A stretch of DNA of 64,000 nucleotides from an uncultured Syntrophaceae bacterium (lineage in GTDB: Bacteria > Desulfobacterota > Syntrophia > Syntrophales > UBA2192): positions 118,416 to 182,415 of the forward strand of contig CAZVLL010000004.1 in assembly GCA_964628025.1 (NCBI GenBank), given 5' to 3'. The first letter of the stretch is position 1; the number at the start of each line of letters is the position of its first letter. Made by a program: the position numbers and the translations under genes. Under the pieces are notes generated by a model. It was not told where the DNA came from. It ran no database searches and was given only the letters and a program-made list of their open reading frames with translations. Below are positions 21,271-43,994 of the stretch, piece by piece.

Positions 21271-21357
21271 GACAATTTTGTTCATACACGCGAAGACCTC
21301 TTGTTTTTTGTGCCTATTTTCGCTATAGGAACAATTCTGTCATACGACAAGAATGTT
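21271..21357. promoter_or_regulatory. Three ACA-N4-TGT boxes around candidate sigma70 promoter of the activator gene
   Basis: GACAATTTTGTT 21271-21282, AACAATTCTGTC 21330-21341, GACAAGAATGTT 21346-21357; TTGTTT-N17-TATAGG 21301-21329. Confidence 0.55.
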
Positions 21358-21371
21358 CAACAGGATACGCC

Positions 21372-22898
21372 ATGAGCCGATTCAACTACGAGGAACTTGC
21401 CGCTCTGCATACCATCGCGAAAATTCTGACCCAGACCGGTGAGCTGCGCGAACAGCTTGACAAGATCATGATCGAACTGAGCAAGCGCCTCGGAATGGAA
21501 CGCGGAATGATCTCCATCCTGGATCAGAAAACAGGAGAGACCTGGCTGGAAGTGGCCCGCGGGGTCGATATCGAAGGCCTCGACATCAGCTACAAGCCAG
21601 GCGAGGGAATCACGGGCAAGGTCGCTCAGACAGGACGGCCCATGGCCATCGCAAACCTGGGCAAGGAGAACCTCTTCCTTGACCGCACCGGCGCCCGGAA
21701 GCACCTCGACCGTTCCCAGCTTGCGTTCCTCTGTGTCCCCATCATCTACAACGGGAAGGTTGCGGGCGTGCTGTCGGCCGACAAACTCACCCACAAGGTC
21801 ACAGACCTCGAGGAGGAGGTGGCCATTTTATCGGCCGTGGCAGATCTCATCGCCAAGGCCGTTCACGGGCTGGGACTGGAGGAGGAAAACCGGCGGCTGC
21901 GGAAGATGCTCAGCCATACGCGAACCATCTCCACGGACATCATCGGGAATTCCAAGCCCATGCTGGACGTGCTCAACCTGATTTCCCAGGTGGCCGACTC
22001 GGGCACGACGGTCCTCATCAACGGGGAGACCGGAACAGGAAAAGAACTCGTGGCGCGGGCGATCCACTCCAACAGTCCCCGCAAGAACGGCCCCTTCATC
22101 CAGGTCAACTGCGCCGCCATGCCCGATACGCTCATTGAAAGCGAACTCTTCGGTCATGAGAAAGGGGCCTTCACCGGAGCCATCCAGCGGCGCCGCGGTC
22201 TCTTCGAGGAGGCCCACGGCGGGACTATTTTCCTCGACGAGATCGGGGAGCTTTCCCCGGCGGCACAAGCCAAGGTGCTTCGCGTGCTTCAGGAAAAACA
22301 GCTCCAGCCGGTTGGTTCTTCACGGACGGTCACGGTGAATGTCCGTATCATTGCGGCTACGAACCGGATCCTGGAACAGGATGTGGCCGAGGGTCGTTTC
22401 CGTGCGGACCTCTACTACCGGCTCAACGTGTTTCCCATCTACATGCCGAATCTGCGGGAGCGGGGAAGCGACATCATCCTGCTGACGGATCACTTCATCG
22501 TGAAGTATGCCAAGATACTCGTGAAGCGCGTAAAGAGGATTTCCACACCGGCACTGGACATGCTTCTCGCGTACCATTGGCCCGGGAATGTCCGCGAGCT
22601 GGAAAACTGCATCGAACGGGCCGTGATCCTGGCCCCCGGTGATTCCATCGAAAGCCCCCACCTGCCACCGTCGCTTCAGTTGAAATCGAAAGAGGCGGCA
22701 AAGACGGAACGGGGCAAACTCGAAACCCTCGTCAGTGCCTACGAGCGATCCCTGATCATTGACGCGCTGAAAGACGCCCGCGGCAACCAGAGCAAAGCGG
22801 CAAAATTTCTGGGAACGACGAAACGGATTATCCAGTACAAAATCACGAAATACGCCATCGATCCCCAGCGTTTCAAATCCAAACGGATTGCATCCTAA
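21372..22898 (+). CDS. NifA-like sigma54-dependent transcriptional activator (GAF-AAA+-HTH)
   Basis: N-terminal GAF ([21 protein letters not shown]), [31 protein letters not shown], Fis-type HTH. Confidence 0.93.
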
Positions 22899-22938
22899 AG
22901 AGGGAGGATTCCACGTCGTGCCTAAACACTTAATCCGG

Positions 22939-23121
22939 TACATTTATGTAGCTGTTTCCTGCCGCTTCTATTCTTGAAATGCCCTCAGGCGGTCTTCTCT
23001 GAGCCCCCGGATTCTTCCCGACGTGAATATTTAAACCCCTCACATCAAGGAGTTAACAGCTGTTCTTGTCTTTTATCCGCAATGCTGCGGAACTGTGTTT
23101 CGAACGTGGCATGTTTTTTGA
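22939..23121 (+). promoter_or_regulatory. Box + IHF-like site + near-consensus sigma54 promoter upstream of HTH-only gene
   Basis: TACATTTATGTA 22939-22950; CATCAAGGAGTTA 23043-23055 (1 mismatch to WATCAANNNNTTR); TGGCATGTTTTTTGA 23107-23121 (GG-N10-GA, -12 imperfect). Confidence 0.5.
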
Positions 23122-23176
23122 CAATTCACGATACATAAGTTTTTCATTCCACAACAACCGGGCGGAGTGAAACATC

Positions 23177-23386
23177 ATGAACGTGGAAAAAATGGAGAGC
23201 AAAACAGTATCATCCCTAGCCAGTCTTATGAACGCTTATGAGCGTGCATTGATCATCGATGCGCTCGTAAGCACACTGGGAAATCAGAGTCAGGCGGCAA
23301 AACGGCTCGGCACATCCAAGAGGGTGATTCACTACAAGATACACAAATACGGGATCGACCCTCGCCGTTTCCGGATGGGCCTGTAG
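23177..23386 (+). CDS. Stand-alone Fis-type HTH protein, paralog of the upstream activator's DNA-binding domain
   Basis: SD GGAG; AYERALIIDAL....GNQSQAAKRLGTSKRVIHYKIHKYGIDP. Confidence 0.85.
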   Translation: MNVEKMESKTVSSLASLMNAYERALIIDALVSTLGNQSQAAKRLGTSKRVIHYKIHKYGIDPRRFRMGL

Positions 23387-23411
23387 TCGATCAAGCGGGG
23401 GCCCGTAAAGT

Positions 23412-23452
23412 TACATTATTGTACGTGGCATTTTGCGAAATACAATATTGTT
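23412..23452. promoter_or_regulatory. Paired ACA-N4-TGT boxes overlapping candidate sigma70 promoter of glutamate synthase operon
   Basis: TACATTATTGTA 23412-23423 and TACAATATTGTT 23441-23452; TTGTAC-N16-TACAAT 23419-23446. Confidence 0.6.
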
Positions 23453-23522
23453 CCTTTTTTACTTTCTCCCCGGATCAAAGACCGTCATCCAAAAACGATG
23501 ATGATGCGAAGGAACTGAGATC

Positions 23523-24653
23523 ATGTGTCGACTTTTTTCCATCACAAGCGAACAGCCTCTTTCTCCTCTGATTGCCCTCGAGGCGCTCAACGTCATGAAG
23601 GAAGGCCACGATGGCTCCGGAGTCGGTCTTTACATGACCGATCTAGGCGGAGAATTCGCCGGCTACAAGCAATGCCCGATTCTTTCGGGGATCTTCACGA
23701 AAGAAGGAATGAAGAAGCTCAACGATTACATGACGGCCCGAGGCTTTGTCGCAAAGCACGAGGTCGTCATCCGGCCCTCCAAAACCCCTCCGACGGGGAC
23801 CCCGCGACGAGACGTATACCTGTTTGCAGTTTATGAGTACCCTGCCGAGTGGATGGATCTCAGCCGGGAAGAGCGATCGCTTCGCTTCATGGTCACCCGC
23901 GTCCAGTTGCGCCAGATGGGCCTGGAGGACGGCTCGATGATGGTCTTCAGCTTCTGGCCCGACGTGCTCATGCTCAAGGAGATCGGCGATCCCCTCGAGG
24001 TGGCCGATTACCTCGATCTCGACAGGCGGAACATCCTGGCCCGTAGCATGCTGGCCCAGGGCCGTCAAAACACGAACTACGCTATCACGCTGTATGCCTG
24101 CCACCCTTTTTTCATCCAGGGTATGGCGACCATGACCAACGGAGAGAACACGGCCTTCGTTCCGATTCGAGAGTTCCTCCTCTCAAGGAATTGCCCCGGC
24201 TACATCGGCTACCAGTCCGACTCGGAAGTGTTCACCCATATCATGCATTATACGCATTACAGGCTCGGCATGGGACTCGAGGCCTACAAACACATCATTA
24301 CCCCGTTGAAAGATGAAGAACTGAACAAACACCCCGACGGGAAGTGGCTTCGGCTGTTGAAGCATACCTGCCGTCCCCTCATCATCGACGGGCCCAACTG
24401 CGTCATCGGTTTTTTGCCCGACAAAACCATGTTTGTCGTTCAGGACAGCAAGAAACTCCGCCCCGGTATTATCGGCGGCAAACCGGGACTCTTCGCCGTT
24501 TCCTCGGAGATGTGCGGCCTCGATTACGTCATTCCCGACCGCGACAAGAGCCGGGATTTTCAGCCCATGAAATACGATGTCGCCAGTGTCGGTCCCGATC
24601 GTTCGGAGGTTAATGTATGGAATCAATGGGAACCCTTCACCCATCCACGCTGA
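23523..24653 (+). CDS. Glutamate synthase, glutamine amidotransferase (class II) subunit, GltB domain 1
   Basis: N-terminal Cys nucleophile (MCRLF), QGRQNTN, ACHPF, TNGEN, SDSEV, DGP, LRP. Confidence 0.88.
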   Translation: MCRLFSITSEQPLSPLIALEALNVMKEGHDGSGVGLYMTDLGGEFAGYKQCPILSGIFTKEGMKKLNDYMTARGFVAKHEVVIRPSKTPPTGTPRRDVYLFAVYEYPAEWMDLSREERSLRFMVTRVQLRQMGLEDGSMMVFSFWPDVLMLKEIGDPLEVADYLDLDRRNILARSMLAQGRQNTNYAITLYACHPFFIQGMATMTNGENTAFVPIREFLLSRNCPGYIGYQSDSEVFTHIMHYTHYRLGMGLEAYKHIITPLKDEELNKHPDGKWLRLLKHTCRPLIIDGPNCVIGFLPDKTMFVVQDSKKLRPGIIGGKPGLFAVSSEMCGLDYVIPDRDKSRDFQPMKYDVASVGPDRSEVNVWNQWEPFTHPR

Positions 24654-26251
24654 GCACCAAGGACCTGCGCTGGCGGATCCTCTGGAGCAAGGAAAAGTGC
24701 ACCCTCTGCGGCCGCTGTACGGCCGTCTGCCCCGTGCAGTCCATTGAGTTGGGCGTACATCGCAAACGAACGGTTTCCGTCCCCCTGGGAATCAAGGAAA
24801 CGCCGGGTGCGGCCTTTTCCGTGTATCATGGAATCGATCAAAGGACCGACCCAGCCTACGCCTGCATCGGCTGCGCCATGTGCAACCTCGTGTGTCCCAA
24901 CGAAGCCATCATTCCCGTGCAAAACGAGGAGATCGACAAGCAGCGGTTCCACATCAATACGGGCGGGATTCCCCGCAGGCGCGGCGGCCGTCGCAACAAC
25001 CCGGGAAGCCTGCTGGACCAGATCAAGTTCGTCCGCATCTCCATGCTGACCGACCCGGCCCTCGACGCCGGCCGCCACGAATTCGAACTGAGAACGCTTT
25101 TGGGCCGTATCCTTCCTGCCGAGGAGGCCCTGCAGTTCACCCGGGAAAATGGCTGGATCCCTCCTGTCCGCGAAATTTACCCGCTCATCATCGGGAGCAT
25201 GTCCTTCGGGGCGCTGTCCCCTACCATGTGGGAAGGGCTCCAGATGGGGGTGGCCTATCTCAACGAAGAGCTTAAAATGCCCGTGCGGATGTGCACCGGC
25301 GAGGGCGGCTGTCCCCCGAGGCTTTTGCGCTCACGCTTCATCAAGTACGTCATCCTCCAGATCGCCAGCGGCTACTTCGGCTGGGATGAGATCATCCACG
25401 CATTGCCCGAGATGAAGGAAGATCCCTGTGCAGTGGAAATCAAATACGGGCAGGGCGCCAAGCCCGGCGACGGGGGCCTGCTGATGTGGTACAAGGTCAA
25501 CAGCCTCATCGCCCGGGTTCGCGGCGTGCCGGCTGGCGTGAGCCTCCCCAGCCCGCCCACGCACCAGACAAAGTACTCCATTGAGGAGTCCGTGGCAAAG
25601 ATGATCCAGTCCATGTACATGGCCTGGGGGTTCCGCGTTCCCGTGTATCCCAAGATCTCCGCCACAAGCACCACCAATGCCGTGCTCAACAACCTGACCC
25701 GCAACCCCTACGCCGGAGGGCTCGCCATCGACGGAGAGGACGGCGGTACCGGGGCCGCGTACAACGTTTCCATGGATCACATGGGTTACCCCATCGCGAG
25801 CAATATCCGGGACGCCTACCTCAATCTGGTCAAAATCGGAAAGCAGAACGAAATCCCGCTCTTTGCCGCCGGCGGTATCGGAAAAAACGGGAACCTCGCC
25901 GCCAATGCCGCCGCCCTCATCATGCTGGGAGCAAGCGGCGTCCAGATCGGCAAATACGCCATGCAGGCGGCAGCGGGCTGCCTCGGCTCGGAGACGGACC
26001 GCTGCAATGTCTGCAACATCGGTCTTTGTCCGAAAGGAATCACCTCTCAAGATCCCCGCCTGTACCGGCGTCTTGATCCCGAGAAAGTGGCCGAGCGCCT
26101 CGTGGACATGGTTCTCAGTTTTGACACGGAACTGAGGAAGGTTGTTGCCCCCCTGGGCCGTTCCACCTCGCTGCCCATCGGTATGGCCGATGCCCTCGGG
26201 ATCGCCGACAAGGCGGCGGCGGAGCGGCTTCAGATCCAATACGTCGTGTAG
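24617..26251 (+). CDS. Glutamate synthase FMN-binding subunit with N-terminal 2x[4Fe-4S] domain (GltB domain 2)
   Basis: CTLCGRCTAVCP, CIGCAMCNLVCP, MSFGALS, TGEGG, EIKYGQGAKPGDGG, CNVCNIGLCPKGITSQ. Confidence 0.92.
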   Translation: MESMGTLHPSTLSTKDLRWRILWSKEKCTLCGRCTAVCPVQSIELGVHRKRTVSVPLGIKETPGAAFSVYHGIDQRTDPAYACIGCAMCNLVCPNEAIIPVQNEEIDKQRFHINTGGIPRRRGGRRNNPGSLLDQIKFVRISMLTDPALDAGRHEFELRTLLGRILPAEEALQFTRENGWIPPVREIYPLIIGSMSFGALSPTMWEGLQMGVAYLNEELKMPVRMCTGEGGCPPRLLRSRFIKYVILQIASGYFGWDEIIHALPEMKEDPCAVEIKYGQGAKPGDGGLLMWYKVNSLIARVRGVPAGVSLPSPPTHQTKYSIEESVAKMIQSMYMAWGFRVPVYPKISATSTTNAVLNNLTRNPYAGGLAIDGEDGGTGAAYNVSMDHMGYPIASNIRDAYLNLVKIGKQNEIPLFAAGGIGKNGNLAANAAALIMLGASGVQIGKYAMQAAAGCLGSETDRCNVCNIGLCPKGITSQDPRLYRRLDPEKVAERLVDMVLSFDTELRKVVAPLGRSTSLPIGMADALGIADKAAAERLQIQYVV

Positions 26252-26266
26252 CCGGAGAGAAAAACC

Positions 26267-28645
26267 GTGAGAGAAAAGAAGTCACCCAGGAAAAACGTCA
26301 GGACCAAGGAACCTACCCTTGTCGTCGAAGGGATGGTGAAGGGGCGGCGGATCGACTCGCGTGTCCTCGAAGAGCGTATGCAGAAGGCCGTGGAAGCCGG
26401 TCACCGCTCGATCGAGGTTCAGGCCTTCGGGCAGCACGGTATCGGGGGCAGGCTCTGGAAGGCGGGAAACGAAGCGCTCACGATCCGAATCAGCGGATCC
26501 CCCGGACAGCGTGTGGGTTCCATGGGATTTCCCAACACCTTCATCGAGGTCACGGGCCCTGCCTCCGACGACGTGGGCTGGCTGAACGCCGGCGCCACGA
26601 TTGTCGTGCACGGCCACGCCACCAACGGCTGCGGCAACGCCATGGCCCAGGGAAAGATTTTCGTGGCGGGCGATATCGGCGCCCGCGGCATGACCATGAC
26701 CAAGCACAACCCCCGGTTCGCCCCCCCTGAACTGTGGGTACTGGGCGGTGTCGGTGATTCCTTTGCCGAATTCATGGCAGGAGGCATCGCCGTCGTGTGC
26801 GGCCACGAGTCCCACCAGGCAGACAATGTTCTGGGCCACCGCCCCTGTGTAGGCATGGTGGGCGGGAAGATCTTCTTCCGCGGCCCCTACAAAGGCCACA
26901 GCGAGGAGGATGCCCGCCTCGATCCCGTTTCAGCCGCCGACTGGAAGTGGCTCAAGGCCGGCATGAAGGACTTTCTCCGCTCTATCGGGCGCGATGAACT
27001 CTACGAAAGCCTGACGGAAGATCCGGCCGTCTGGAAGCTCCTCTCGGCCCGCAAGCCCGGTGAGAAAGGCACGAAGGCCGTCCGCAAAATGGAAGACTTC
27101 CGCCGCTTCGTCTGGGACAGCGAACTCGGAAAGGGCGGGTTGATAGGGGATCTGACCGATATGGACCGAAGCCCGATCCCGGTCATCACAACGGGGACCC
27201 TCCGGCGTTTTGTCCCGGTCTGGGAGAACCTGAAATTCCTGCCGCCGTGCCAGGCCAGTTGCCCCACCGGGATCCCCGTGCAGAAGCGCTGGGAAATGGT
27301 GCGAAAGGGGCTCGTCGACGAGTCTGTCGACATCGCGCTGGCCTACACGCCATTCCCCGTCACGGTCTGCGGATACCTCTGCCCCAACGTCTGCATGCAG
27401 CACTGCACGCGGCAGATAGAAGGCATGAAGCCGGTGGACATCGCGGTTCTGGGCAAGGCAAGCCTCAAGGCGAAGCCGCCCGAGCCGGCACCGGCTTCGG
27501 GCTACAGGGTGGCCATTGTCGGCGGCGGGCCTGCAGGTCTCTCCATCGCCTGGCAGCTGTACCTGAAGGGCCATCAGCCCGTCGTCTTCGACCGGGGCGA
27601 GGAGCTGGGGGGAAAGATCACGAGTTCCATCCCCAGCCTGCGCATCCCCGACGAGATCGTCCGGCATGAAATCGATCGGGTGAAAGGACTCATCCCCAAG
27701 GTCCACACGAAGAAAGACCTGTCGAAAAAGGAGTTCACGAAACTTCGCGAAGAATACGACTACGTCGTCATCGCCACGGGGGCCCAGAAGCCGCGCATGC
27801 TCCCGATCCCCGGAATCGAGCGCGCCCTTCCGGCCCTCGAATTCCTGCGCGCCAGCAAGGAGAACCGCATCCGGGTCGGAACACGCGTCGTCGTCATCGG
27901 TGCGGGAAACGTGGGATGCGACGCGGCGGCGGAGGCAGCGCGGCTCGGCGCCATGGACATCACGCTTATCGACATCCAGGAGCCGGCCTCTTTCGGAAAG
28001 GAGCGCCAGCATGCCGAGGCAGCGGGGGCCAAGTTCCTCTGGCCTGTCGCCTCAAGGGCCATCACCGCGGAAGGCGTCGAGCTCTCGAAAGGAGATATCC
28101 TGCCCGCCGACACGGTCATCGTGGCCGTCGGCGACCAGCCCGACCTGGGCTTTGTTCCTGACAGCATCACCACGGACAGGGGATTCGTCGTCGTAAACGA
28201 GCATTTCCAGACAAGTGACCCCAAGGTCTTCGCCGTGGGCGACACGGTCAGGCTGGGGCTTCTCACAGAGGCCATCGGCGCAGGCCGAAGAGCCGCAGAG
28301 TCCATCGACGCTTTGCTCAAGGGTCGCGAACCGGCCCTCGACACGCTGCCGCCCATCCCCTCGGCCCGGATCAAGCTCGAATACTATGACCCGCGAGTCA
28401 AAGGCTTCGGGGATGTAGACGACTGCGCCGGCGAGTGCGCCTCCTGCGGCTCCTGCCGGGACTGCTCTGTGTGCGTCACCCTCTGCCCGCAGAATGCGAT
28501 CTCGCGCAAGGACCTGGGCGGCGGTGCCTACGAGTACACCGTGGACCCCGACCTGTGCATCGGCTGCGGCTTCTGCACGGGTGCCTGTCCCTGCGGGATC
28601 TGGCAACTGGTGGAGAATGTCCCGATCGACAGCGTCAATCAGTAA
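26267..28645 (+). CDS. Glutamate synthase GXGXG domain fused to GltD-like FAD/NAD(P)H oxidoreductase and ferredoxin domain
   Basis: GQHGIGG, AEFMAGG, PPCQASCPTG, VGGGPAG, VIGAGNVGCD, C-terminal CRDCSVC...CIGCGFCTGACPC. Confidence 0.88.
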   Translation: MREKKSPRKNVRTKEPTLVVEGMVKGRRIDSRVLEERMQKAVEAGHRSIEVQAFGQHGIGGRLWKAGNEALTIRISGSPGQRVGSMGFPNTFIEVTGPASDDVGWLNAGATIVVHGHATNGCGNAMAQGKIFVAGDIGARGMTMTKHNPRFAPPELWVLGGVGDSFAEFMAGGIAVVCGHESHQADNVLGHRPCVGMVGGKIFFRGPYKGHSEEDARLDPVSAADWKWLKAGMKDFLRSIGRDELYESLTEDPAVWKLLSARKPGEKGTKAVRKMEDFRRFVWDSELGKGGLIGDLTDMDRSPIPVITTGTLRRFVPVWENLKFLPPCQASCPTGIPVQKRWEMVRKGLVDESVDIALAYTPFPVTVCGYLCPNVCMQHCTRQIEGMKPVDIAVLGKASLKAKPPEPAPASGYRVAIVGGGPAGLSIAWQLYLKGHQPVVFDRGEELGGKITSSIPSLRIPDEIVRHEIDRVKGLIPKVHTKKDLSKKEFTKLREEYDYVVIATGAQKPRMLPIPGIERALPALEFLRASKENRIRVGTRVVVIGAGNVGCDAAAEAARLGAMDITLIDIQEPASFGKERQHAEAAGAKFLWPVASRAITAEGVELSKGDILPADTVIVAVGDQPDLGFVPDSITTDRGFVVVNEHFQTSDPKVFAVGDTVRLGLLTEAIGAGRRAAESIDALLKGREPALDTLPPIPSARIKLEYYDPRVKGFGDVDDCAGECASCGSCRDCSVCVTLCPQNAISRKDLGGGAYEYTVDPDLCIGCGFCTGACPCGIWQLVENVPIDSVNQ

Positions 28646-28719
28646 GCGTTGATGTACGAAGCGGCCGCATCGCGGCCGGAAGGAAAGGACTTGCTTTTTC
28701 AACAGGCTCTGTCAGAATT

Positions 28720-28762
28720 CTTCATTCCGATACGGTCATACAAAAGACCGGATTGAATGAAG
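28720..28762 (+). promoter_or_regulatory. Stem-loop in glnA leader
   Basis: CTTCATTC/GAATGAAG outer stem, CGGTC/GACCG inner stem, loop ATACAAAA; 30 nt before ATG. Confidence 0.45.
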
Positions 28763-28792
28763 CAACCTTTTACCCATATCAAGGAGGCCGTA

Positions 28793-30124
28793 ATGACCAA
28801 TATCAGAGACGCAAAAGATGTACAGAAATTTGTCAAGGACAAGAACGTCAGCTTCATTCAATTCTGGTTCACCGATGTCCTTGGAAAACTGAAAACCTTC
28901 AGCGTAACCCCGTCGGAACTCGAAGAGGGCATGGCGGAGGGAATGGGCTTCGATGGTTCCTCCATCGAGGGTTTCGCCCGCATCGAAGAGAGCGACATGA
29001 TCGCCATGCCGGACCCCAAGACGTTCCAGTTGATTCCCTGGCGTCCCAGCGACCGCCCCGTGGCACGCATGTTCTGTGACATCCTGAACCCCGACGGCAC
29101 CCCCTACATGGGCGACCCCCGCTACGCGCTGAAGAGAATCCTCGCCAAGATCGCCAAGCAGGGATACACCTTCTACGTGGGGCCCGAGCTGGAATATTTC
29201 TACTTCGCCAATGATAGCGAGCCCGAAATCCTCGACCAGGCCGGCTACTTCGACGGCCTTCCCACCGACCGCGGCACGGACCTGCGCCGCCAGACCATCT
29301 TCGCTCTTCAGAGCATGGGGATCCGCGTAGAGTACAGCCATCACGAAGTCGCCCCAAGCCAGCACGAGATCGATCTGCGCTACCTCGACGCCCTGACCAT
29401 GGCCGACACGGTCATGACCTACCGGGTGGCCGTAAAGGAGATCGCGCGGCAAAACGGCGTTTACGCCACCTTCATGCCGAAGCCGATTTTCGGTCAGAAC
29501 GGAAGCGGCATGCACGTTCATCAGTCGCTTTTCAAGGGCAGCAAGAATGCCTTCTTCGACGGAAAAGACAAATATCATCTCTCCGGTGTGGCCAAGCACT
29601 ACATCGCCGGAATCATGCGGCACGCCCGGGAGATGACGGCCATCACCAACCAATGGGTCAATTCCTACAAGCGTCTGGTGCCCGGTTATGAGGCGCCTGT
29701 GTATTGCGCCTGGGCACGCCGCAACCGCTCCGCCATGGTTCGCGTCCCCATGTACAAGCCCGGCAAGGAGAAGGCCACCCGTATCGAGTACCGCTCGCCC
29801 GATCCGACCTGCAATCCCTACCTGGCCTTTGCCGTCATGCTGGCGGCGGGTCTCAAGGGCATCGAATCCAAGTACGTTCTGCCCGAGCCAGTGGAGCATG
29901 ACATCTTCGAGATGGACGAGAAGGCGCGGGCCGCCGAGGGAATTACGTCTCTGCCGGGAAGCCTCTGGGAGGCCACGGAAGAGCTCAGGAAGAGCGTGCT
30001 GGTCAATGAGACGCTCGGGGACCACATCTTCGGCAAGTTCATTGCAAACAAGGAGAAGGAGTGGGACCTCTTCCGGACCCACGTGACCGACTTCGAAATC
30101 AGTCGCTATCTTCCCATGCTGTAA
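28793..30124 (+). CDS. glnA: Glutamine synthetase type I
   Basis: SD AAGGAGG; FDGSSIEG, GPELEYF, HHEVAPSQHEI, TFMPKP....NGSGMHVHQS, YKRLVPGYEAP, RIEYRSPD. Confidence 0.96.
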   Translation: MTNIRDAKDVQKFVKDKNVSFIQFWFTDVLGKLKTFSVTPSELEEGMAEGMGFDGSSIEGFARIEESDMIAMPDPKTFQLIPWRPSDRPVARMFCDILNPDGTPYMGDPRYALKRILAKIAKQGYTFYVGPELEYFYFANDSEPEILDQAGYFDGLPTDRGTDLRRQTIFALQSMGIRVEYSHHEVAPSQHEIDLRYLDALTMADTVMTYRVAVKEIARQNGVYATFMPKPIFGQNGSGMHVHQSLFKGSKNAFFDGKDKYHLSGVAKHYIAGIMRHAREMTAITNQWVNSYKRLVPGYEAPVYCAWARRNRSAMVRVPMYKPGKEKATRIEYRSPDPTCNPYLAFAVMLAAGLKGIESKYVLPEPVEHDIFEMDEKARAAEGITSLPGSLWEATEELRKSVLVNETLGDHIFGKFIANKEKEWDLFRTHVTDFEISRYLPML

Positions 30125-30128
30125 AGGC

Positions 30129-30165
30129 AAAGAAGGGGCAATCCGAACGGTTGCCCCTTCTTTTT
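30129..30165 (+). terminator. Rho-independent terminator after glnA
   Basis: AAAGAAGGGGCAA-TCCGAACGG-TTGCCCCTTCTTTTT. Confidence 0.85.
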
Positions 30166-30277
30166 CGATTCTCTTGGAAAACTAGAAGAATTCGAGTATA
30201 GTAATCGAGCGGGTGTGACCACTCGTCAGGGCGGTTCACCCGCATCGCCTTGTCTACAAACCCACGGAGTATTGAAC

Positions 30278-31423
30278 GTGCATCTTCTGAAGAAAAGACC
30301 CAGGGCTACGCTTGTTCTCGAGGACGGCAGCATTTACCGGGGCTATGCCTTCGCCTACGTGGGGGAGGCCATGGGAGAAGTCGTCTTCAACACGGGCATG
30401 ACGGGCTACCAAGAAATCCTTACGGACCCGTCCTACCAGGAACAAGTCGTGACGATGACCTACCCCCTCATCGGCAGCTACGGGATCAACCCCGAGGACA
30501 TGGAGTCCGCAAAGATCCACCTCGAAGGGTTCATCGTCAAAGAATACCAGCCCTTCCCCAGCAACTGGCGCTCCCGCATGACCCTGAAGGAGTTCCTCGA
30601 AGGGCACAAGAAGCTCGGCGTCGAGGGAATCGATACTCGGGCTCTCACCCGCCGAATCCGTATGGCCGGGGCCATGAAGGGAATCCTCTCGACAGAGACG
30701 GACGACACGCGGCTCCTGCTCGAAAAGGTCCGCGCTTACCCGGGACTCGTGGGAAGGGACCTCATTCCCCTCGTGACCTGCGAGAAACCCTATCTCTGGA
30801 AAGACAACGGCCCCCGCCCCATCGAACGGATGGAAAAGACGAAATCGCGCCTGCGCGTCGTCGTCATCGACTGCGGCGTGAAGTACAACATATTACGCAA
30901 TCTCGAAAAGCAGGGCTGCGACGTCATCGTCGTCCCGGCCCGGACGACGGCCCCGGAAATCCGGGCCTATGATCCGGATGGAGTGCTCTTGAGCAACGGC
31001 CCCGGAGACCCGGCCACCCTTCCCTACATCGTCGATACGGTCCGGCAGCTTCTGGGCCGAACGCCCATCTTCGGTATCTGCCTCGGGCACCAGATCCTGG
31101 GCCAGGCACTGGGCGGAACGACGGCCAAGCTCAAGTTCGGCCACCACGGGATCAACCAGCCTGCCAAGAACGTGAAGCACAACCAGGTCGAGATCACCTC
31201 GCAGAACCACGGGTTTATCGTCCTTCCGGAGTCGCTGAAAGGCATGCTCGAGAAGACGCACATGAATCTCAACGACGGCACCCTCGAGGGTCTCTCTGTC
31301 CCGGGGAAAATGGCCTTCAGCGTTCAGTACCACCCCGAAGCGGCGCCCGGCCCCCAGGACGCGAATTATCTCTTTACGGAATTCACCGACCTCATGCGGA
31401 GAGAGAAACGCAAAGATGCCTAA
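30278..31423 (+). CDS. carA: Carbamoyl-phosphate synthase small subunit
   Basis: [47 protein letters not shown]; GTG 30278 after GGAG. Confidence 0.95.
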
Positions 31424-34400: not shown

Positions 34401-34703
34401 GTCGTCGACTTCATCAAGAACGGAAGCATTCATCTCGTCATCAACACCGTTCTGGGCCGGCGGTCTTCGCTGGATTCCTACCACATCCGCCGAGGGGCGT
34501 TGACGTACGGCATCCCCTACACGACGACCATCGCCGGGGCCAGAGCCGTGAGCGAAGCCATCCGGGCTCTCCAGAAGGAAGAATGGCAGGTCCGCCCGCT
34601 ACAGGAGTACTACAAGGTTCAGAAAGCAGGCGGCCCGTCGAAGCAAACCGGAAAAAGGCAGCCGCAAGGAGCCCCCAAGAAGGGCACGAAGCGAAACACC
34701 TGA
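31416..34703 (+). CDS. carB: Carbamoyl-phosphate synthase large subunit
   Basis: [28 protein letters not shown], duplicated ATP-grasp halves, [12 protein letters not shown] domain. Confidence 0.97.
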
Positions 34704-34750
34704 TGACGACATCGGGCAGGCAGCAAGGCAAAGGGATCGGGATACCCCAT

Positions 34751-36208
34751 ATGTTCAGCAACTGGATGAACGACGACGGACCGCGCGAGGAGTGCGGTAT
34801 CTTCGCCGTGCACGGCCACGAACAGGCAGCGAGATTGACCTACTTCGGACTCTTCGCGCTGCAACACCGCGGCCAGGAAAGCGCCGGCATCACCACGGCA
34901 GACGGCAAGACCGTTCACGAGCACAAGGGGATGGGCCTCGTCTCCGAAGTCTTCCACGAAAATACACTGCAGAAGCTCCATGGTCACATGGCCATCGGTC
35001 ATGTCCGCTATTCGACCACCGGGTCCTCGACCCTGTCCAACGCCCAACCCTTTCTGGTCCATCATGCCGGTGAGCCCTACGCCCTGGGGCACAACGGAAA
35101 CCTCATCAATGCACAGCAGCTACGCTCTCAGCTCGAGAAACAGGGCTCCATTTTCCAGTCTACCATGGACAGCGAGATCATTGTTCATCTCATGGCCCAT
35201 CATCTCCGAAACGGATTCGAGGATTCTCTGGTGAAGGCGCTCGGAAAGGTGAAGGGGTCGTACTGCCTGGTGATGCTGACGAAGGACAAGGTCATCGCCG
35301 CCCGGGATCCCCGGGGATTCCGACCCCTGGCCATCGGGAAACTGGGAGAGGCCTATATCGTTGCCTCGGAGACCTGTGCCTTCGATCTGCTGGGAGCGAC
35401 CTACGTCCGGGACGTCGATCCGGGCGAGATCGTCATCATAGACAGCTCCGGACTCAAAAGCCTCAAGCCCTTCCGAAAAGTCCGACCCGCCCATTGCATC
35501 TTCGAGCTCGTTTACTTCGCACGGCCCGACAGCCACATCTTCGGCCAGAATGTCTATCTCTGCCGCAAACGCTTCGGCCGTCAGCTCGCTCGCGAGTATC
35601 ACCCGGACGTGGACCTCGTTATGCCCTTCCCCGACTCCGGAAACTATGCAGCCCTGGGTTACGCCGAGGAAAGCCGCCTGCCGTTCGAGATGGGCATGAT
35701 CCGCAACCACTACGTGGGCCGCACCTTCATCCAGCCATCCCAGGCGATCCGCGATTTCGGCGTTCGCGTGAAGCTCAACCCCGTAAAACCCCTGCTCCAG
35801 GGAAAGCGCGTCCTCATCGTCGAGGATTCCATTATCCGGGGCACCACGAGCCGGAATCGAATCCGCAATCTGCGGCAGATCGGGGTGAAGGAAATCCACA
35901 TGGCCATCAGCTGCCCGCCCACGATCCATCCCTGCCCCTTTGGCATCGATTTTTCCTCGAAGGGGGAACTGATCGCCGCGGAAAAGGGTTCGGCCGAGGC
36001 AATCGCCCGTTTCATCGGCCTGGATTCCCTCTATTACCTCAGTATCAAGGGCATGGTCGAGGCCACGGGAATGGATCCCCGGAGTTTCTGTCTGGCCTGT
36101 TATTCCGGGAAATATCCCGTTCCCGTCGACGAGGAGCTCGATAAGTTCTGCCTGGAGGACCGGGCAACCTGCGACACGCAGCAGGATGATCTCCCCTTCA
36201 TCTCGTGA
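34751..36208 (+). CDS. purF: Amidophosphoribosyltransferase
   Basis: REECGIF, LQHRGQESAG, GHVRYST, HNGN, CIFELVYFARPDS, VEDSIIRGTTS; start approximate. Confidence 0.95.
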   Translation: MFSNWMNDDGPREECGIFAVHGHEQAARLTYFGLFALQHRGQESAGITTADGKTVHEHKGMGLVSEVFHENTLQKLHGHMAIGHVRYSTTGSSTLSNAQPFLVHHAGEPYALGHNGNLINAQQLRSQLEKQGSIFQSTMDSEIIVHLMAHHLRNGFEDSLVKALGKVKGSYCLVMLTKDKVIAARDPRGFRPLAIGKLGEAYIVASETCAFDLLGATYVRDVDPGEIVIIDSSGLKSLKPFRKVRPAHCIFELVYFARPDSHIFGQNVYLCRKRFGRQLAREYHPDVDLVMPFPDSGNYAALGYAEESRLPFEMGMIRNHYVGRTFIQPSQAIRDFGVRVKLNPVKPLLQGKRVLIVEDSIIRGTTSRNRIRNLRQIGVKEIHMAISCPPTIHPCPFGIDFSSKGELIAAEKGSAEAIARFIGLDSLYYLSIKGMVEATGMDPRSFCLACYSGKYPVPVDEELDKFCLEDRATCDTQQDDLPFIS

Positions 36209-36339: not shown

Positions 36340-36451
36340 TACAACCTTGTACAACTATCCATTAATTATACAATTGTGTATATCTCATCGAACGATACCA
36401 TTTGGCATCTTATTGATATATTTCATGTTTTGTGGTGGCCGGGGAATTGCA
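36340..36451 (+). promoter_or_regulatory. Paired boxes plus sigma54 promoter of amtB-PII operon 1
   Basis: TACAACCTTGTA 36340-36351, TACAATTGTGTA 36369-36380; TGGCCGGGGAATTGCA 36436-36451 (GG-N10-GC). Confidence 0.7.
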
Positions 36452-36488
36452 ATCTGTTCTGTAATTCATGATTGGGGGACGGGACATC

Positions 36489-37715
36489 ATGGTTCATCAA
36501 ATCAACGCGGGCGATACAGCCTGGATTCTGGTCTGCTGTTCCCTTGTGCTGCTCATGACACCGGCACTGGCGCTGTTTTACGGCGGGATGGTGCGGCGGA
36601 AAAACGTTCTTTCCACATTGACGCTGAGCTACATCTTCATGGCCCTCATCGGGGTGCAATGGGTCGCTTACGGATACTCCCTTGCCTTCGGCACGTCCAT
36701 CCACGGATGGATCGGGGGCCTGAACTTCATCGGGTTTCAGGGGGTGGATGCCCTGCCCAATGCGGACTACAGCAAAACGATTCCTCATGGGCTCTTCGCC
36801 GCCTTCCAGATGATGTTTGCCGTTATCACGCCGGCCCTGATCACCGGCGCCTTCGTGGAGCGGGTCAAGTTCAAAGGCTTTCTGCTGTTCAGCCTGCTCT
36901 GGGCGACGCTCGTCTATGATCCCCTTTGCCATTGGGTCTGGGGTCAAGGCGGCTGGCTGAAAAACCTGGGGGTCCTTGATTTTGCGGGCGGGACGGTCGT
37001 GCACATCGCAGCCGGTTTTTCCGCCCTCGCATTTGCCCTGGTGATCGGGCCACGCAAGGGTTTCGGCAAGTCCCCCATGGAGCCGAATAATATCCCCCTG
37101 ACGGTTCTGGGGGCCGGACTGCTATGGGTGGGCTGGTTCGGCTTTAACGCAGGTTCTGCCCTGGCCGCTAACGGTGTGGCCGTCAATGCCCTTCTGACCA
37201 CGAACACCTCGGCGGCGACGGCCGGCCTGGTCTGGATGGTTCTCTCCTGGCTCGACGGTCGGCCCAGCACGTTGGGAATCGCAACAGGGATGGTGGTCGG
37301 CCTGGCGGCTGTGACCCCGGCTTCGGGTTACATCACGCCGATGGCATCCATGCTGGTCGGGGCCGTCGCGGCACCGCTGTCTTATTATGCGATGCGCTTC
37401 CGGGACCGCCGCAAACTCGATGAGTCCCTCGATGTATGGGCATGTCACGGAATTGCCAGCACGTGGGGCATGATCGCCGCCGGTCTTTTCGCAACCGTCT
37501 CCGTTAACAGCGACGGTGCCAACGGCCTGTTCTTCGGCAACCCCGGACAGATCGGGATCCAGATCCTGGCCATCGTCGTCACCATGGTCTTTTCATTCGG
37601 GATGACCTTTTTGCTGGCCAAGGCGCTCAACGCGAGTATCGGATTGCGGGTGAGTCCCATGGAGGAGGAGGTCGGACTGGATATCAGTTCCCACGGGGAA
37701 CGATCGTATTCATAA
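36489..37715 (+). CDS. amtB: Ammonium transporter 1
   Basis: LMTPALALFYGG, FQMMFA, DFAGGTVVH, GWFGFNAGS, DVWACHG, GLDISSHGE. Confidence 0.95.
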   Translation: MVHQINAGDTAWILVCCSLVLLMTPALALFYGGMVRRKNVLSTLTLSYIFMALIGVQWVAYGYSLAFGTSIHGWIGGLNFIGFQGVDALPNADYSKTIPHGLFAAFQMMFAVITPALITGAFVERVKFKGFLLFSLLWATLVYDPLCHWVWGQGGWLKNLGVLDFAGGTVVHIAAGFSALAFALVIGPRKGFGKSPMEPNNIPLTVLGAGLLWVGWFGFNAGSALAANGVAVNALLTTNTSAATAGLVWMVLSWLDGRPSTLGIATGMVVGLAAVTPASGYITPMASMLVGAVAAPLSYYAMRFRDRRKLDESLDVWACHGIASTWGMIAAGLFATVSVNSDGANGLFFGNPGQIGIQILAIVVTMVFSFGMTFLLAKALNASIGLRVSPMEEEVGLDISSHGERSYS

Positions 37716-37773
37716 TCCTGCGCGCCGGATAGAATGGCCATCGCAGGCAATCCCTTCTTTTGGAGATTGACCC

Positions 37774-38160
37774 ATGCTGAAAAAAATCGAAGCGATCATT
37801 CGTGAAGACAAGGTCAACGATGTCGTGGACGCCCTGGCCGAAATCGGCATTGTGGGATTGAACATCTTTGAAGTGCGTGGCCACGGCCGCCAGGGAGGAA
37901 TCTCGCTTGTGGGCCGGGCCGGAACCTACCAGGTCAACATGCTGCCGAAAATCCAGGTCAACATCGTCCTGAGCGACCGCAACCTCGAGGCCGCCATCGA
38001 CGCCGTTCTCAACTCAGCCCGGACCGGGGAGCCCGGGGACGGTCTAATCTTTGTCTGTCCCGTGGACGAGGTGATTCGCATCCGGACGCGCGAGCGAGGC
38101 CAGGATGCCATGATGTATCCTGACGATATCGACGAAAAGAAGAAACGGAGTAAAGGGTGA
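37774..38160 (+). CDS. glnK: PII nitrogen regulatory protein 1 (divergent T-loop, C-terminal extension)
   Basis: GHGRQG, LPK, ARTGEPGDGLIFV, RIRT; follows amtB. Confidence 0.88.
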   Translation: MLKKIEAIIREDKVNDVVDALAEIGIVGLNIFEVRGHGRQGGISLVGRAGTYQVNMLPKIQVNIVLSDRNLEAAIDAVLNSARTGEPGDGLIFVCPVDEVIRIRTRERGQDAMMYPDDIDEKKKRSKG

Positions 38161-41694: not shown

Positions 41695-41873
41695 GGCACC
41701 CCGGATCATCAGAAAATAGCGTAATCTCCACTTTTGTATATCGGCAGATGGAAAGAATATATTCAGCAATTCCGGGAAGCGATCAGCGTTCCGTGTCACT
41801 GGTTCGTACAGGGCGATGGCGGCCCTGGCCGGTATCCGCCGGGCCCGGAGCATACGCACGCAGCGCCACATTT

Positions 41874-42038
41874 ATCATTATTGTTGCATTTATATATAAT
41901 AAAGACAATAACGTGCTTTATAAATTATTAGTATACATTATTGTATGATTATTTTCATGACCCCGTCGGAGATTATCTTATTTATATGTATTATATTGAA
42001 TACTTACAATATATTTTTCCCCTGGCACTTTTATTGCT
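41874..42038 (+). promoter_or_regulatory. Three boxes at 30-bp period plus sigma54 promoter of amtB-PII operon 2
   Basis: ATCATTATTGTT 41874, GACAATAACGTG 41904, TACATTATTGTA 41934; CTGGCACTTTTATTGCT 42022-42038 (GG-N10-GC). Confidence 0.8.
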
Positions 42039-42086
42039 CAGTTGAATAGCAAGTATTTGACAATTCCATCACAGGAGGGCTTTATC

Positions 42087-43322
42087 ATGAATACGGGCGA
42101 TACTGCTTGGGTGCTCATGTCGTCTGCACTCGTTCTTCTCATGACTATCCCCGGTCTTGCTTTTTTCTACGGCGGACTCGTCAGGAGAAAAAATGTTCTT
42201 TCCATTCTGATGCAATGCCTGATTATTCTTTGCGTCATCACGCTCCAGTGGGTCCTCTACGGGTATTCCCTGACCTTCGGTCCCGACGCCTGGAACGGGA
42301 TCATCGGCGGGCTCGACTGGGCCGGGCTGCGCAATGTCGGCGGCCAGCCCAATACCGATTACGCCGCGACCATTCCGCACTATGCCTTCATGATCTTTCA
42401 GTGCATGTTCGCAGTCATCACGCCGGCGCTGATCATCGGAACCTTTGCCGAGCGGATCAAGTTCTCGGCATTTCTGCTCTTCACGATCCTCTGGGCGACC
42501 TTTGTCTATAATCCGCTCGGGCACTGGGTCTGGGGAATGGGAGGATGGCTTCGGGATCTGGGGGCTCTCGACTTCGCAGGGGGCATCGTGGTTCACACCA
42601 GCTCGGGCGTATCGGCTCTTGTCCTGGCGCTCCTCATCGGAAAGAGGATCGGATTCGACAAAAGGGCCTTCACACCGCACAACCTGCCCTTCACGGTCAT
42701 GGGGGGCGCGCTGCTCTGGTTCGGATGGTTCGGGTTCAATGCAGGCAGCGCTTTGGCGGCCAATGAACTCGCGGCCAATGCCTTCGTTACAACTACCGTC
42801 GCGGCCTCCGCTGCAGGATTGACCTGGGCCATTATTGAATGGTTTAAGCACAAGGCTCCCACTGCCCTCGGCGCCATTTCAGGCGCAGTGGCGGGACTCG
42901 TCGCCATCACACCGGCCTGCGGGTTTGTAAACCCAATGAATGCCATCTTCATCGGGTTGCTCGCCAGTTTCTTCTGCTATTTCGCCATTGCGAAGGTGAA
43001 AGCCTTCTTCAAATATGACGACTCTCTCGATGTATTCGGCATCCACGGCGTCGGCGGCATCTGGGGAACTCTCGCCACGGGCCTGTTCGCGGAGAAGGCC
43101 GTCAACGAGGCCGGCGCCAACGGGTTGCTGTTCGGCAATGCGCAGCTTTTCTTCGTCCAGTGTCTTCTCGTTGTGGTGACCATCGCTTTCGCGGCGGTCA
43201 TGACCTGGATCATTTTCAAACTCGTCGACGCGTTGATGTGTGTCCGGGTGGAAAAGACCAAAGAGATTGTCGGTCTGGACCTTACCCAGCACAGCGAGTC
43301 GGCATACACCCTGGTCGACTAG
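42087..43322 (+). CDS. amtB: Ammonium transporter 2
   Basis: SD AGGAGG; PGLAFFYGG, FQCMFA, DFAGGIVVH, GWFGFNAGS, DDSLDVFGIHG. Confidence 0.95.
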   Translation: MNTGDTAWVLMSSALVLLMTIPGLAFFYGGLVRRKNVLSILMQCLIILCVITLQWVLYGYSLTFGPDAWNGIIGGLDWAGLRNVGGQPNTDYAATIPHYAFMIFQCMFAVITPALIIGTFAERIKFSAFLLFTILWATFVYNPLGHWVWGMGGWLRDLGALDFAGGIVVHTSSGVSALVLALLIGKRIGFDKRAFTPHNLPFTVMGGALLWFGWFGFNAGSALAANELAANAFVTTTVAASAAGLTWAIIEWFKHKAPTALGAISGAVAGLVAITPACGFVNPMNAIFIGLLASFFCYFAIAKVKAFFKYDDSLDVFGIHGVGGIWGTLATGLFAEKAVNEAGANGLLFGNAQLFFVQCLLVVVTIAFAAVMTWIIFKLVDALMCVRVEKTKEIVGLDLTQHSESAYTLVD

Positions 43323-43334
43323 GAGGCGCTCATC

Positions 43335-43676
43335 ATGAAATATATCATTGCCATCATCAAACCGCACAAACTGGACGACGTGATGAATGCGCTCGAAGAG
43401 GTCAACGTGAACCTGATGACCGTTTCCAACGTGCTTGGCCGGGGACGGCAGATGGGCATTACAGAGGTCTATCGGGGCGCCAAGGAAGTGGGGAGTCTCC
43501 TCAAGAAGGTAAAACTTGAAATCGCCGTCAACGAAGATTTTGTGGAGCCCACCATCCAGGCCCTTAGCAAGGGAGCCCGCACAGGCGAGATCGGAGACGG
43601 GAAAATCTTTGTTCTGGACCTTCCCGACGTCATCCGGATCCGCACCGGCGAACGCGGCGGGCCGGCGATCGGGTAA
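43335..43676 (+). CDS. glnK: PII nitrogen regulatory protein 2
   Basis: [41 protein letters not shown]. Confidence 0.92.
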
Positions 43677-43858
43677 AAAAACGGCATCGGGCGACGGGCT
43701 TCCGGTATCAGGAAATGAATGAGTCCCCTATCTTTTTTCTCTGATGCTTGTTGCCCGGCGCCTGAGGCCTTGATCCCTCAGGTCCTGTCATGAAGACAGA
43801 ACATGAAAAAAACCCTTGAATTCATCTTGCACGGGGATCCGGGTGCGATCACTCAGGA

Positions 43859-43994
43859 TACATATTGGTACACCACCCATGATAGTGATACATTATCGTA
43901 TCGCACACAGACGTCCTTGCCACGTCCGCTGCACGCATTAACCTTATCATATTCGTATCTTACATATTTTCTTATCATTGGCATCCGAATTGCT
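43859..43994 (+). promoter_or_regulatory. Paired boxes plus sigma54 promoter upstream of DapB-like gene
   Basis: TACATATTGGTA 43859-43870, TACATTATCGTA 43889-43900; TTGGCATCCGAATTGCT 43978-43994 (GG-N10-GC). Confidence 0.75.

Follow-up and report, generated by a model that had tools for sequence, protein, structure and literature searches.

The activator NifA binds upstream activating sequences of the form TGT-N10-ACA at the nif promoters of diazotrophic Proteobacteria. At the enteric glnAp2 promoter, tandem sites for dimers of NtrC lie about three turns apart and nucleate a hexamer; the spacing of NtrC sites is about 32 bp, and sites that overlap a sigma-70 promoter give autorepression. The protein Fis reportedly derives from the DNA-binding domain of NtrC, a view said to go back to Morett and Bork in 1998. 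Here, we analyze a palindromic element with the core ACA-N4-TGT (the "box"), which recurs near nitrogen-assimilation genes in an uncultured Syntrophaceae bacterium (Desulfobacterota, order Syntrophales; GenBank assembly GCA_964628025.1). The window that we analyzed is 64,000 nucleotides of contig CAZVLL010000004.1 (positions 118,416 to 182,415 of the forward strand), and coordinates without a contig label are positions in the window. The genome comprises 2.75 Mb in 33 contigs, with 57% G+C, and is 98.87% complete. A first-pass annotation, made from the letters alone, had proposed that the boxes define a sigma-54 nitrogen regulon.

Two other described systems are relevant. DVU1949 from Desulfovibrio vulgaris Hildenborough is a single-component sigma-54 activator; comparative genomics predicts that it is autoregulated and that nine operons, filed under nitrogen metabolism and transport, are under its control. 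The same text mentions TGT/ACA half-sites that are 9, 11, or 12 bp apart for some motif groups (Kazakov et al. 2015, PMC4641369). GnfM is the master sigma-54 activator of nitrogen genes in Geobacter sulfurreducens, and its tandem sites have been footprinted; upstream sites serve activation, and sites that overlap the promoter, as at gdhA, serve repression (Ueki and Lovley 2010, PMC2995071).

The boxes in the window are real and conserved, and they are most likely upstream activating sites for the adjacent sigma-54 activator, which has GAF, AAA+, and helix-turn-helix (HTH) domains and would control nitrogen-assimilation genes. We give this reading a probability of roughly 0.78. We computed the boxes with their excess, spacing, and degree of conservation, as well as the promoters, the genes nearby, and the occurrence of RpoN; from these we infer which protein binds, in which direction it regulates, and what signal it answers.

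A palindromic box in excess over chance

The first-pass annotation listed 13 boxes, and every position given for them was correct. We scored them with a matrix that was built from 132 sites in relatives' sequences only. In this list, HTH1 is a small stand-alone HTH protein, the GltS operon encodes glutamate synthase, and no strand is assigned to the boxes:

21271 to 21282, no strand: box GACAATTTTGTT upstream of the activator gene, about 20 bp upstream of the -35 element; 17.7 bits; kept in 16 of 16 aligned genus loci
21330 to 21341, no strand: box AACAATTCTGTC over the -10/start region of the activator promoter; 12.3 bits; seen in the genus alignment
21346 to 21357, no strand: weak box GACAAGAATGTT; 8.0 bits; not kept in the genus alignment
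22939 to 22950, no strand: single box, 40 bp past the activator's stop codon and about 163 bp upstream of the HTH1 promoter; 14.4 bits; kept in the genus alignment
23412 to 23423, no strand: box TACATTATTGTA, first of a 29-bp pair between HTH1 and the GltS operon; 14.8 bits
23441 to 23452, no strand: box TACAATATTGTT, second of this pair and the best-scoring box in the genome; 20.2 bits
36340 to 36351, no strand: box TACAACCTTGTA upstream of amtB1; less than 6 bits
36369 to 36380, no strand: box TACAATTGTGTA upstream of amtB1; 13.2 bits
41874 to 41885, no strand: degenerate box ATCATTATTGTT, distal of three (upstream of amtB2); 9.5 bits
41904 to 41915, no strand: degenerate box GACAATAACGTG, middle of three; 10.7 bits
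41934 to 41945, no strand: box TACATTATTGTA, proximal of three; 14.9 bits; its ortholog in the genus loci is the box at -97 to -102
43859 to 43870, no strand: box TACATATTGGTA (upstream of the dapB-like gene); 12.1 bits
43889 to 43900, no strand: box TACATTATCGTA (upstream of the dapB-like gene); 13.5 bits

The low score of TACAACCTTGTA is due to its G+C centre. Nine of the 13 boxes have the exact ACA-N4-TGT core, and four of 13 have one mismatch in the core (TCA..TGT at 41874, ACA..CGT at 41904 and 43889, and ACA..GGT at 43859). As had been noticed before, TACATTATTGTA is identical at 23412 and 41934. The exact sequence TACAWWWWTGTA is found in three boxes only (22939, 23412, and 41934); the expectation from shuffled sequences is 0.00, and 0/100 shuffles reach three. 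Overall, the box is a palindrome of roughly 16 bp in which the ACA-N4-TGT core is invariant and the middle is A/T. Locally, the consensus reads wTACAwwwwTGTAw or, around the activator gene, GGAACAAwwTTGTTCC. Alignments of the activator, HTH1-GltS, amtB2, and dapB-like loci show that ACA and TGT are retained in relatives while the flanks drift.

There are nine exact matches to TACA-N4-TGTA in the 2.75-Mb genome, and five of these lie inside the 23-kb stretch that holds the 13 boxes. For a broader count, we considered intergenic matches of at least 8 bits with the relatives' matrix. The five local intergenic regions (1,942 bp) contain 12 such matches, or 6.18 per kb, versus 71 in the rest of the genome's intergenic DNA (~387 kb), or 0.183 per kb; local density exceeds the density elsewhere between genes 34- to 160-fold. 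As a composition-matched control, we made 1,000 dinucleotide shuffles of the five regions. These had a mean of 0.76 boxes and a maximum of 4, and 12 was reached by 0/1,000. The first-pass annotation had asked if AT-rich spacers might be equally rich in the motif, and with 12 matches versus 0.76 in the shuffles, they are not. The shuffles never reach the observed count, and the rest of the intergenic DNA has a far lower density, so AT-rich spacers do not account for the boxes.

The boxes come in two flavors. Boxes at the activator, HTH1, and GltS prefer G-A before the ACA (GGAACAA..TTGTTCC), while boxes at amtB1, amtB2, and the dapB-like gene prefer A-T (TATACA..TGTATA). If we compare loci L001-L017 to loci L039-L050 and L206-L214, the frequency of G at -7 is 63% versus 13%, and the frequency of T at -6 is 25% versus 60%. 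The two flavors could represent two affinity classes, two binders, or only local composition, and the genomes compared here are kin.

Tandem boxes upstream of sigma-54 promoters

The promoters and genes near the boxes are as follows:

21301 to 21329, + strand: sigma-70-like promoter of the activator gene (TTGTTT, 17 nt, TATAGG); identified by eye in an alignment of 16 genus loci
21372 to 22898, + strand: sigma-54 activator P0001, GAF - AAA+ (GAFTGA) - HTH_8, 508 amino acids; from domain matches and translation
23107 to 23122, + strand: sigma-54-like promoter of HTH1, TGGCATGTTTTTTGAC; from the genus alignment
23177 to 23386, + strand: HTH1 (P0002), a 69-amino-acid stand-alone HTH protein of the Fis/NtrC type, paralog of the activator's DNA-binding domain
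23523 to 36208, + strand: operon of a three-ORF (open reading frame) archaeal-type glutamate synthase, glnA, carA, carB, and purF; from domain and family matches
36436 to 36451, + strand: sigma-54 promoter of amtB1-PII, TGGCCGGGGAATTGCA; pattern match
36468 to 38160, + strand: amtB1 and a 128-amino-acid P-II protein
42023 to 42038, + strand: sigma-54 promoter of amtB2-glnK, TGGCACTTTTATTGCT
42087 to 43676, + strand: amtB2 and glnK; likely ATG start at 42087, inside an ORF that opens at 42042
43979 to 43994, + strand: sigma-54 promoter of the dapB-like gene, TGGCATCCGAATTGCT
44099 to 44632, + strand: dapB-like gene, 177 amino acids (TIGR00036)

The spacings that were first reported between neighboring boxes (29, 29, 30/30, and 30 bp) are correct. 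If we count adjacent pairs that are up to 120 bp apart, then this genome has nine, of which seven are at 29-30 bp, one is at 59 bp, and one is at 69 bp. The relatives contribute 87 adjacent pairs in 79 loci, and in 51 of these pairs the boxes are 29-31 bp apart. This spacing had been described as about three helical turns, which would place dimers on one face of the DNA. The spacing stands, but 29-30 bp corresponds to about 2.8 turns of B-DNA, not three, and the placement on one face is merely approximate.

The three GG-N10-GC elements are also where they were reported (36437/36449, 42024/42036, and 43980/43992, with distances from box to GG of 68, 90, and 91 bp). The -24/-12 promoters at 36436, 42023, and 43979 are canonical and are kept in relatives, and the genome encodes RpoN (a match to PF04552 at C3:112289-112765, E = 4.9e-65). 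Measured from the center of the box to the -24 element, the distances are 62 bp for amtB1, 84, 114, and 144 bp for amtB2, and 85 and 115 bp for the dapB-like gene. If a target on another contig (C7:17764, see below) is included, then the centers cluster at 84-88, 114-118, and 144 bp from the -24 element. Tandem boxes about 85-145 bp upstream of sigma-54 promoters are an enhancer geometry. Activators of this class typically use palindromic sites, often in tandem, at roughly 80-150 bp from the promoter, and the box centers here lie 62-144 bp upstream of the -24 element. The proposal that the boxes define a sigma-54 regulon is supported, with three groups of boxes preceding sigma-54 promoters. 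Not every group does so: the activator's own boxes flank or overlap a conserved sigma-70-like promoter, and the pair at 23412/23441 has no conserved promoter behind it.

These arrangements are conserved. Upstream of amtB1 in relatives, boxes are found in 13/14 loci and the promoter in 13/14, with the 29-bp pair in 7/14. For amtB2, all 27 of the relatives' loci have at least one box of at least 11 bits, and the strict promoter pattern is present in 13/27. Within the genus, the amtB2 loci have a box at -97 to -102 in 11/11 cases and a second box at -127 to -132 in 9/11. At the dapB-like gene, the two boxes and the promoter TGGCAy-N5-TTGCT are kept in 6/7 aligned loci.

The boxes track the activator

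The first-pass annotation had suggested conservation upstream of orthologs as a test, and the boxes are indeed kept at the amtB1, amtB2, dapB-like, and activator loci. Of the relatives' activator loci, 28/29 have boxes, which lie upstream of the gene, just past its stop codon, and as a 29-bp pair before the GltS operon. Across 46 loci from the phylum, the density of boxes is 1.13 per kb within 350 bp of the ends of the activator gene, versus 0.07 per kb elsewhere.

Close orthologs of the activator are present in 37/41 genomes (a sample of the genus, family, and order that includes this genome). In the other four (G017, G018, G025, and G026), the best matches are at the level of paralogs only. 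The activator family at large is present in 187/301 sampled genomes. The presence of boxes is also associated with the sequence of the HTH: among homologs that match T[TS][KR]R..[QH]YK, 16/23 loci have boxes nearby, versus 3/23 for other HTHs. A homolog from a distant family, which is 45% identical and has the helix ITYRIIYYK, precedes a pair of 19-bit boxes with 30-bp spacing, along with a sigma-54 promoter and a gene for a Peripla_BP_5 transporter. We also scanned loci from metagenome-assembled genomes, some of which are labeled as other phyla. Among the matches listed, all of the homologs are at most 54% identical to the activator, and boxes lie just upstream of the homolog in 5/23 of the loci scanned.

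In three loci from another family (L203-L205, family f57), a GAF-type activator that is 46% identical lies directly upstream of amtB. Between the two genes are a single box, a terminator-like hairpin, and TGGCAC-N5-ATGCC.

The first-pass annotation had assigned the boxes to the local activator and HTH protein together. The activator is the primary candidate because families in which we found no small HTH still keep the boxes, and the small HTH is a secondary candidate only.

We propose that dimers of the activator would bind the boxes through the C-terminal Fis-type HTH. Two or three boxes, 29-30 bp apart and about 60-145 bp upstream of the -24/-12 element, could then hold two or three dimers side by side, and these dimers would assemble into a hexameric ATPase. 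The hexamer would loop onto the RpoN-RNA polymerase and open the promoters of amtB1-PII, amtB2-glnK, and the dapB-like gene; outside of the window, it would also open the promoters of a Gcw_chp porin-like gene and of a 131-amino-acid gene. The GAF domain probably senses nitrogen status, via 2-oxoglutarate or a P-II protein; we suggest this because of the analogy with NifA alone.

Alternative explanations

Several observations count against assigning the boxes to the activator. The sites behind the matrix were themselves seeded with boxes from the first-pass annotation, and the relatives' genomes are kin, so all of the counts for conservation and spacing overstate independence. The groups that link the recognition helix to the boxes were drawn up after inspecting the data, and the link is not exclusive, as homologs with other recognition helices also adjoin boxes. 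G026 lacks a close ortholog of the activator (the best match has E = 6.9e-95 and covers the AAA+/HTH part only), yet its amtB is preceded by a 17-bit box and by a sigma-54 promoter. Within the window, the -12 element of the HTH1 promoter is non-canonical, with GA here and GT in the 16 aligned relatives. Also, by eye, no conserved sigma-54 promoter is found behind the pair at 23412/23441, either from 23452 to 23523 or in the aligned relatives.

The case of G026 would fit with an unlinked global regulator (of the CRP/Fnr, GlnR/TnrA, NrpR, Fur, or IHF type) whose sites merely co-occur with the activator's regulon, and AT-rich palindromes are a common type of operator. We consider this unlikely, given that sigma-54 promoters have the boxes about 85-145 bp upstream, arrayed in tandem with a 29-30-bp spacing, and that the boxes track the activator gene across the order and, in places, the phylum. 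To our knowledge, the ACA-N4-TGT core is not found in the sites for NtcA (GTA-N8-TAC), TnrA/GlnR (TGTNA-N7-TNACA), NrpR (GGAA-N6-TTCC), IHF (WATCAA-N4-TTR), or TyrR (TGTAAA-N6-TTTACA). We also know of no operator of the Fur, Rex, ArgR, LexA, CodY, or GntR type with this core, and we set these aside. In the literature that we searched, no text describes an ACA-N4-TGT enhancer or assigns the motif to another regulator; motifs that appear only in figures or supplements were outside this search.

It is quite improbable that the boxes are read mainly by the stand-alone HTH1 (and, in relatives, by a second small protein, HTH2) as repressors or architectural proteins, while the activator binds elsewhere or unspecifically. 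HTH1 and HTH2 are each encoded immediately upstream of a box pair, and HTH1 is predicted to form a symmetric dimer, which would suit a palindrome (a score of 0.51 versus 0.00 for the best control). But the boxes and the promoter geometry are kept in 19 other families in which only the activator's own HTH was found, this genome lost HTH2 but retains the boxes and the promoter, and the activator carries a closely similar HTH of its own. We give hardly any credence to the idea that the boxes are chance palindromes or bending elements in AT-rich spacers, with no protein bound. The amtB2 spacer is just 25% G+C, and the loose pattern ACA-N4-TGT is only weakly enriched in the window (15 matches versus 6.5 expected, and 2/100 shuffles reach 15), so this pattern by itself is weak evidence. 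Against this idea, the composition-matched shuffles never reach the observed number of boxes, ACA and TGT are retained while the flanks drift, and the peak at 29-30 bp is sharp. We favor the activator as the protein that reads the boxes.

The activator gene and its promoter

The activator's AAA+ domain matches PF00158 (E = 2.6e-73), and its translation contains the GAFTGA loop. A GAF domain (PF01590, residues 25-164) forms the N-terminus, and a Pfam search returned no receiver domain. The best NCBIfam model is that of NifA (TIGR01817), with a score of 497.6 bits; the curated cut-off is higher, at 528.85, and the match stops at residue 431, short of the DNA-binding domain. The NtrC model (TIGR01818) gives 336 bits, versus a cut-off of 558.6. 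NifD/K (PF00148) has no match in this genome, which is 98.87% complete. The test for NifH (PF00142) gave weak matches only (best E = 4e-9) and is uninformative, as the same model matches all 14 control genomes. With a score under the cut-off, no NifDK found, and a different site geometry, the activator appears to be NifA-like but not NifA. As judged from its sequence, it works like NifA or NtrC and is a member of neither family. Automatic labels of "NifA" or "Nif-specific regulatory protein" on members of this family are misleading where no nitrogenase is found.

We aligned the activator promoter from 16 genus loci, leaving out L004, in which the start could not be placed. TTGTTT-17-TATAGG is conserved in this alignment, and the box at 21271 lies just upstream of it. 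Because one of the boxes (21330 to 21341) overlaps the -10 element, the activator probably represses its own sigma-70-like promoter, and this box is likely to be the site of autorepression.

HTH1, HTH2, and the GltS operon

HTH1 is 66% identical (35/53, E = 1e-22) to residues 450-502 of the activator. It matches HTH_8 (PF02954, E = 4.6e-10) and is 81-91% conserved within the genus. When a profile of HTH1 was compared to solved chains, the top hit was 2m8g_X ("Transcriptional regulator," 70 amino acids; E = 4.5e-11), followed by Fis (E = 1.4e-4 to 2.8e-3) and then by a chain of NifA. In the databases, relatives of HTH1 are named hypothetical, "helix-turn-helix domain-containing," or, wrongly, "Nif-specific regulatory protein." A short frame of the HTH1 type is present in 16/18 genomes of the genus (counting this one) and in 3/4 of the sister genus. 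In 19 other families, we found no short HTH frame; all of the matches were inside frames of at least 500 amino acids, namely the activator itself. Among the genomes searched, HTH1 is found in one family of Syntrophales only.

A homodimer of HTH1 was predicted with a score of 0.51, versus 0.00 for the best control; solved dimers of Fis and NtrC exist, so the score may reflect only likeness to these. The score mark for a dimer was reached by 20/30 known pairs and 1/23 single chains. In the predicted homodimer, the partner reaches a predicted local distance difference test (pLDDT) value of 77 or more, and 90% or more of the contacts agree between runs. Residues 12-26 and 44-50 form the predicted interface, and most of them are conserved in the activator.

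HTH2 is a second paralog of about 75 amino acids, 48-57% identical to HTH1. It is encoded directly after amtB2-glnK in at least eight genomes of the genus (loci that bear it include L042, L044, L045, L047, and L048), and it is again followed by a box pair. HTH2 has been deleted here and in L040 and L041. A 5' remnant near 43790-43830 is all that persists in this genome; across 43780-43830, only the first ~40 bases still align.

These stand-alone paralogs of the DNA-binding domain are a new part of the regulon. Our tentative suggestion, which we hold to be possible but less than even odds, is that HTH1 and HTH2 are Fis-like stand-alone copies of the activator's DNA-binding domain, with HTH1 newly arisen, and that together they give the nitrogen regulon negative feedback. 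The activator itself would switch on the genes for HTH1 and HTH2 via sigma-54. The small proteins, as homodimers, would then occupy the same boxes as the activator, or they would poison the activator through mixed dimers, via the shared first helix. The box pair right behind each small gene would be the first place of action. If so, an enhancer-binding protein would have given rise to a Fis-type protein a second time, independently, and HTH1 and HTH2 would tune sigma-54 enhancers in a way that we did not find described in the literature searched. In any case, a stand-alone copy of a DNA-binding domain could teach us how sigma-54 enhancers are tuned.

The promoter of HTH1 has the form TGGCAy-N5-TTGTC, with TTGAC in this genome, and TGGCA..TT.TTG is invariant in 17/17 loci. 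All 16 aligned relatives have the GT form of the -12 element, so this lineage seems to tolerate a -12 that is non-canonical. A second promoter with TTGT at -12, TGGCAC-N5-TTGT, lies at C3:135875-135890 (L031, 2375-2390), upstream of the Gcw_chp gene.

The sigma-54-like promoter, with one box about 163 bp upstream, would drive HTH1, and probably also the operon behind it: as judged from the sequence, the 12.7-kb GltS-glnA-carAB-purF operon is probably read from the HTH1 promoter. In this case, the pair at 23412/23441 would work from downstream or as a brake. A scan of 21200-23560 for sigma-70 promoters and terminators gave results at the level of shuffled sequence (2 promoter-like hits versus 1.2 expected, and 1 terminator-like hit versus 3.0), which gives no support for a separate GltS promoter. 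The predicted fold of the RNA from the HTH1-GltS spacer (z = -0.92) does not support a leader structure, and a scan of the whole window with Rfam found no family.

Within the operon, the first GltS ORF (23523-24653, 376 amino acids) has no match in Pfam or NCBIfam. It opens with a conserved MCRLF, as expected for an N-terminal-nucleophile glutamine amidotransferase. As listed, the purF ORF (34583-36208) overlaps carB by about 120 nt. Its true start is probably near 34793, because the purF model matches only from residue 71.

Additional genes and targets

An Mla-like operon on the other strand lies between amtB1-PII and amtB2-glnK. The dapB-like protein scores 116.2 bits against TIGR00036, where the cut-off is 122, and it matches the N-terminal half of the model only (positions 2-132 of 270). 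Its homolog in L041 is also 177 amino acids. It is possibly not a genuine DapB. The leader that runs from the sigma-54 promoter to the start of the dapB-like gene contains a 15-codon cysteine-rich ORF, MHILLCCCFMIVRQC, at 44026-44073. In relatives, this leader is longer (100-300 nt) and has conserved blocks; no Rfam family matches in the window.

The regulon also reaches outside of the window, to C3:135728/135758 and C7:17570-17669. At C3:135728/135758, a 30-bp pair of boxes precedes the TTGT-type promoter of the Gcw_chp porin-like gene. The C7:17764 target has three boxes and GGGTAC-N5-TTGCT.

Two other sites resemble boxes. At C7:43446-43490 (L036), a 29-bp pair of box-like sequences is flanked on one side by a divergent GAF-PAS sigma-54 activator and on the other by a gene of the HpaB/4-hydroxybutyryl-CoA-dehydratase family that has a sigma-54 promoter. 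This pair may belong to a different activator with a related motif. An exact copy of TACATTATTGTA at C9:86379-86394 (L033) lies within an ORF of 662 amino acids that has no Pfam match. This copy may be due to chance, or the gene call may be wrong.

Comparison with known systems

These results provide a testable map of the regulation of nitrogen assimilation for Syntrophales, which are hard-to-grow syntrophic anaerobes without genetics. The map comprises one activator, one type of box, and at least seven promoter regions and the genes behind them. Because the same design of box pair and promoter lies next to homologs that are 45-70% identical elsewhere in the phylum, one matrix could annotate many genomes.

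The activator resembles NifA in its domain order (GAF, then AAA+ with GAFTGA, then a Fis-type HTH) and in having enhancer sites about 100 bp upstream of -24/-12 promoters. Unlike NifA, its targets are assimilation genes, and the order of the half-sites is inverted, with a 4-bp spacer. The regulon is like that of NtrC in that it covers nitrogen assimilation, with glnA and amtB-glnK, and a box over a sigma-70-like -10 element fits with the autorepression logic known for NtrC. Unlike NtrC, the activator has a GAF sensor instead of a receiver that is phosphorylated by NtrB, the sequence of the box is unrelated, and the spacing is 29-30 bp instead of about 32 bp. The first-pass annotation had stated that the geometry of the sites is that of neither NifA nor NtrC, and we agree: the boxes are ACA-N4-TGT, and even if the TGT of a box is paired with the ACA of its neighbor, the distance is 19-20 bp, not the 10 of the NifA consensus.

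Compared by gene content, the nearest published case is the DVU1949 regulon (PMC4641369). It is alike in its GAF-type activator and its nitrogen genes. The gene for DVU1949 is in an operon with iorAB, whereas P0001 is not, and no iorAB was seen beside homologs of the activator in the loci from the phylum that we examined. Compared by the layout of sites, GnfM (PMC2995071) shares the logic of repression with that proposed for the box that overlaps the activator's -10 element. GnfM's system also uses an antiterminator, which has no counterpart that we saw here, with no Rfam match in the window.

As for Fis of the gamma-proteobacteria, HTH1 is likewise small and stand-alone and, by its profile matches, has the same class of fold. 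Unlike Fis, it has 69 amino acids instead of 98, it lacks the N-terminal arm of Fis, and it is 66% identical to the DNA-binding domain of the neighboring activator, within whose regulon it is encoded. Overall, this is a regulon of an ordinary kind, with no new mechanism, that combines a new site sequence with an unusual extra small DNA-binding protein.

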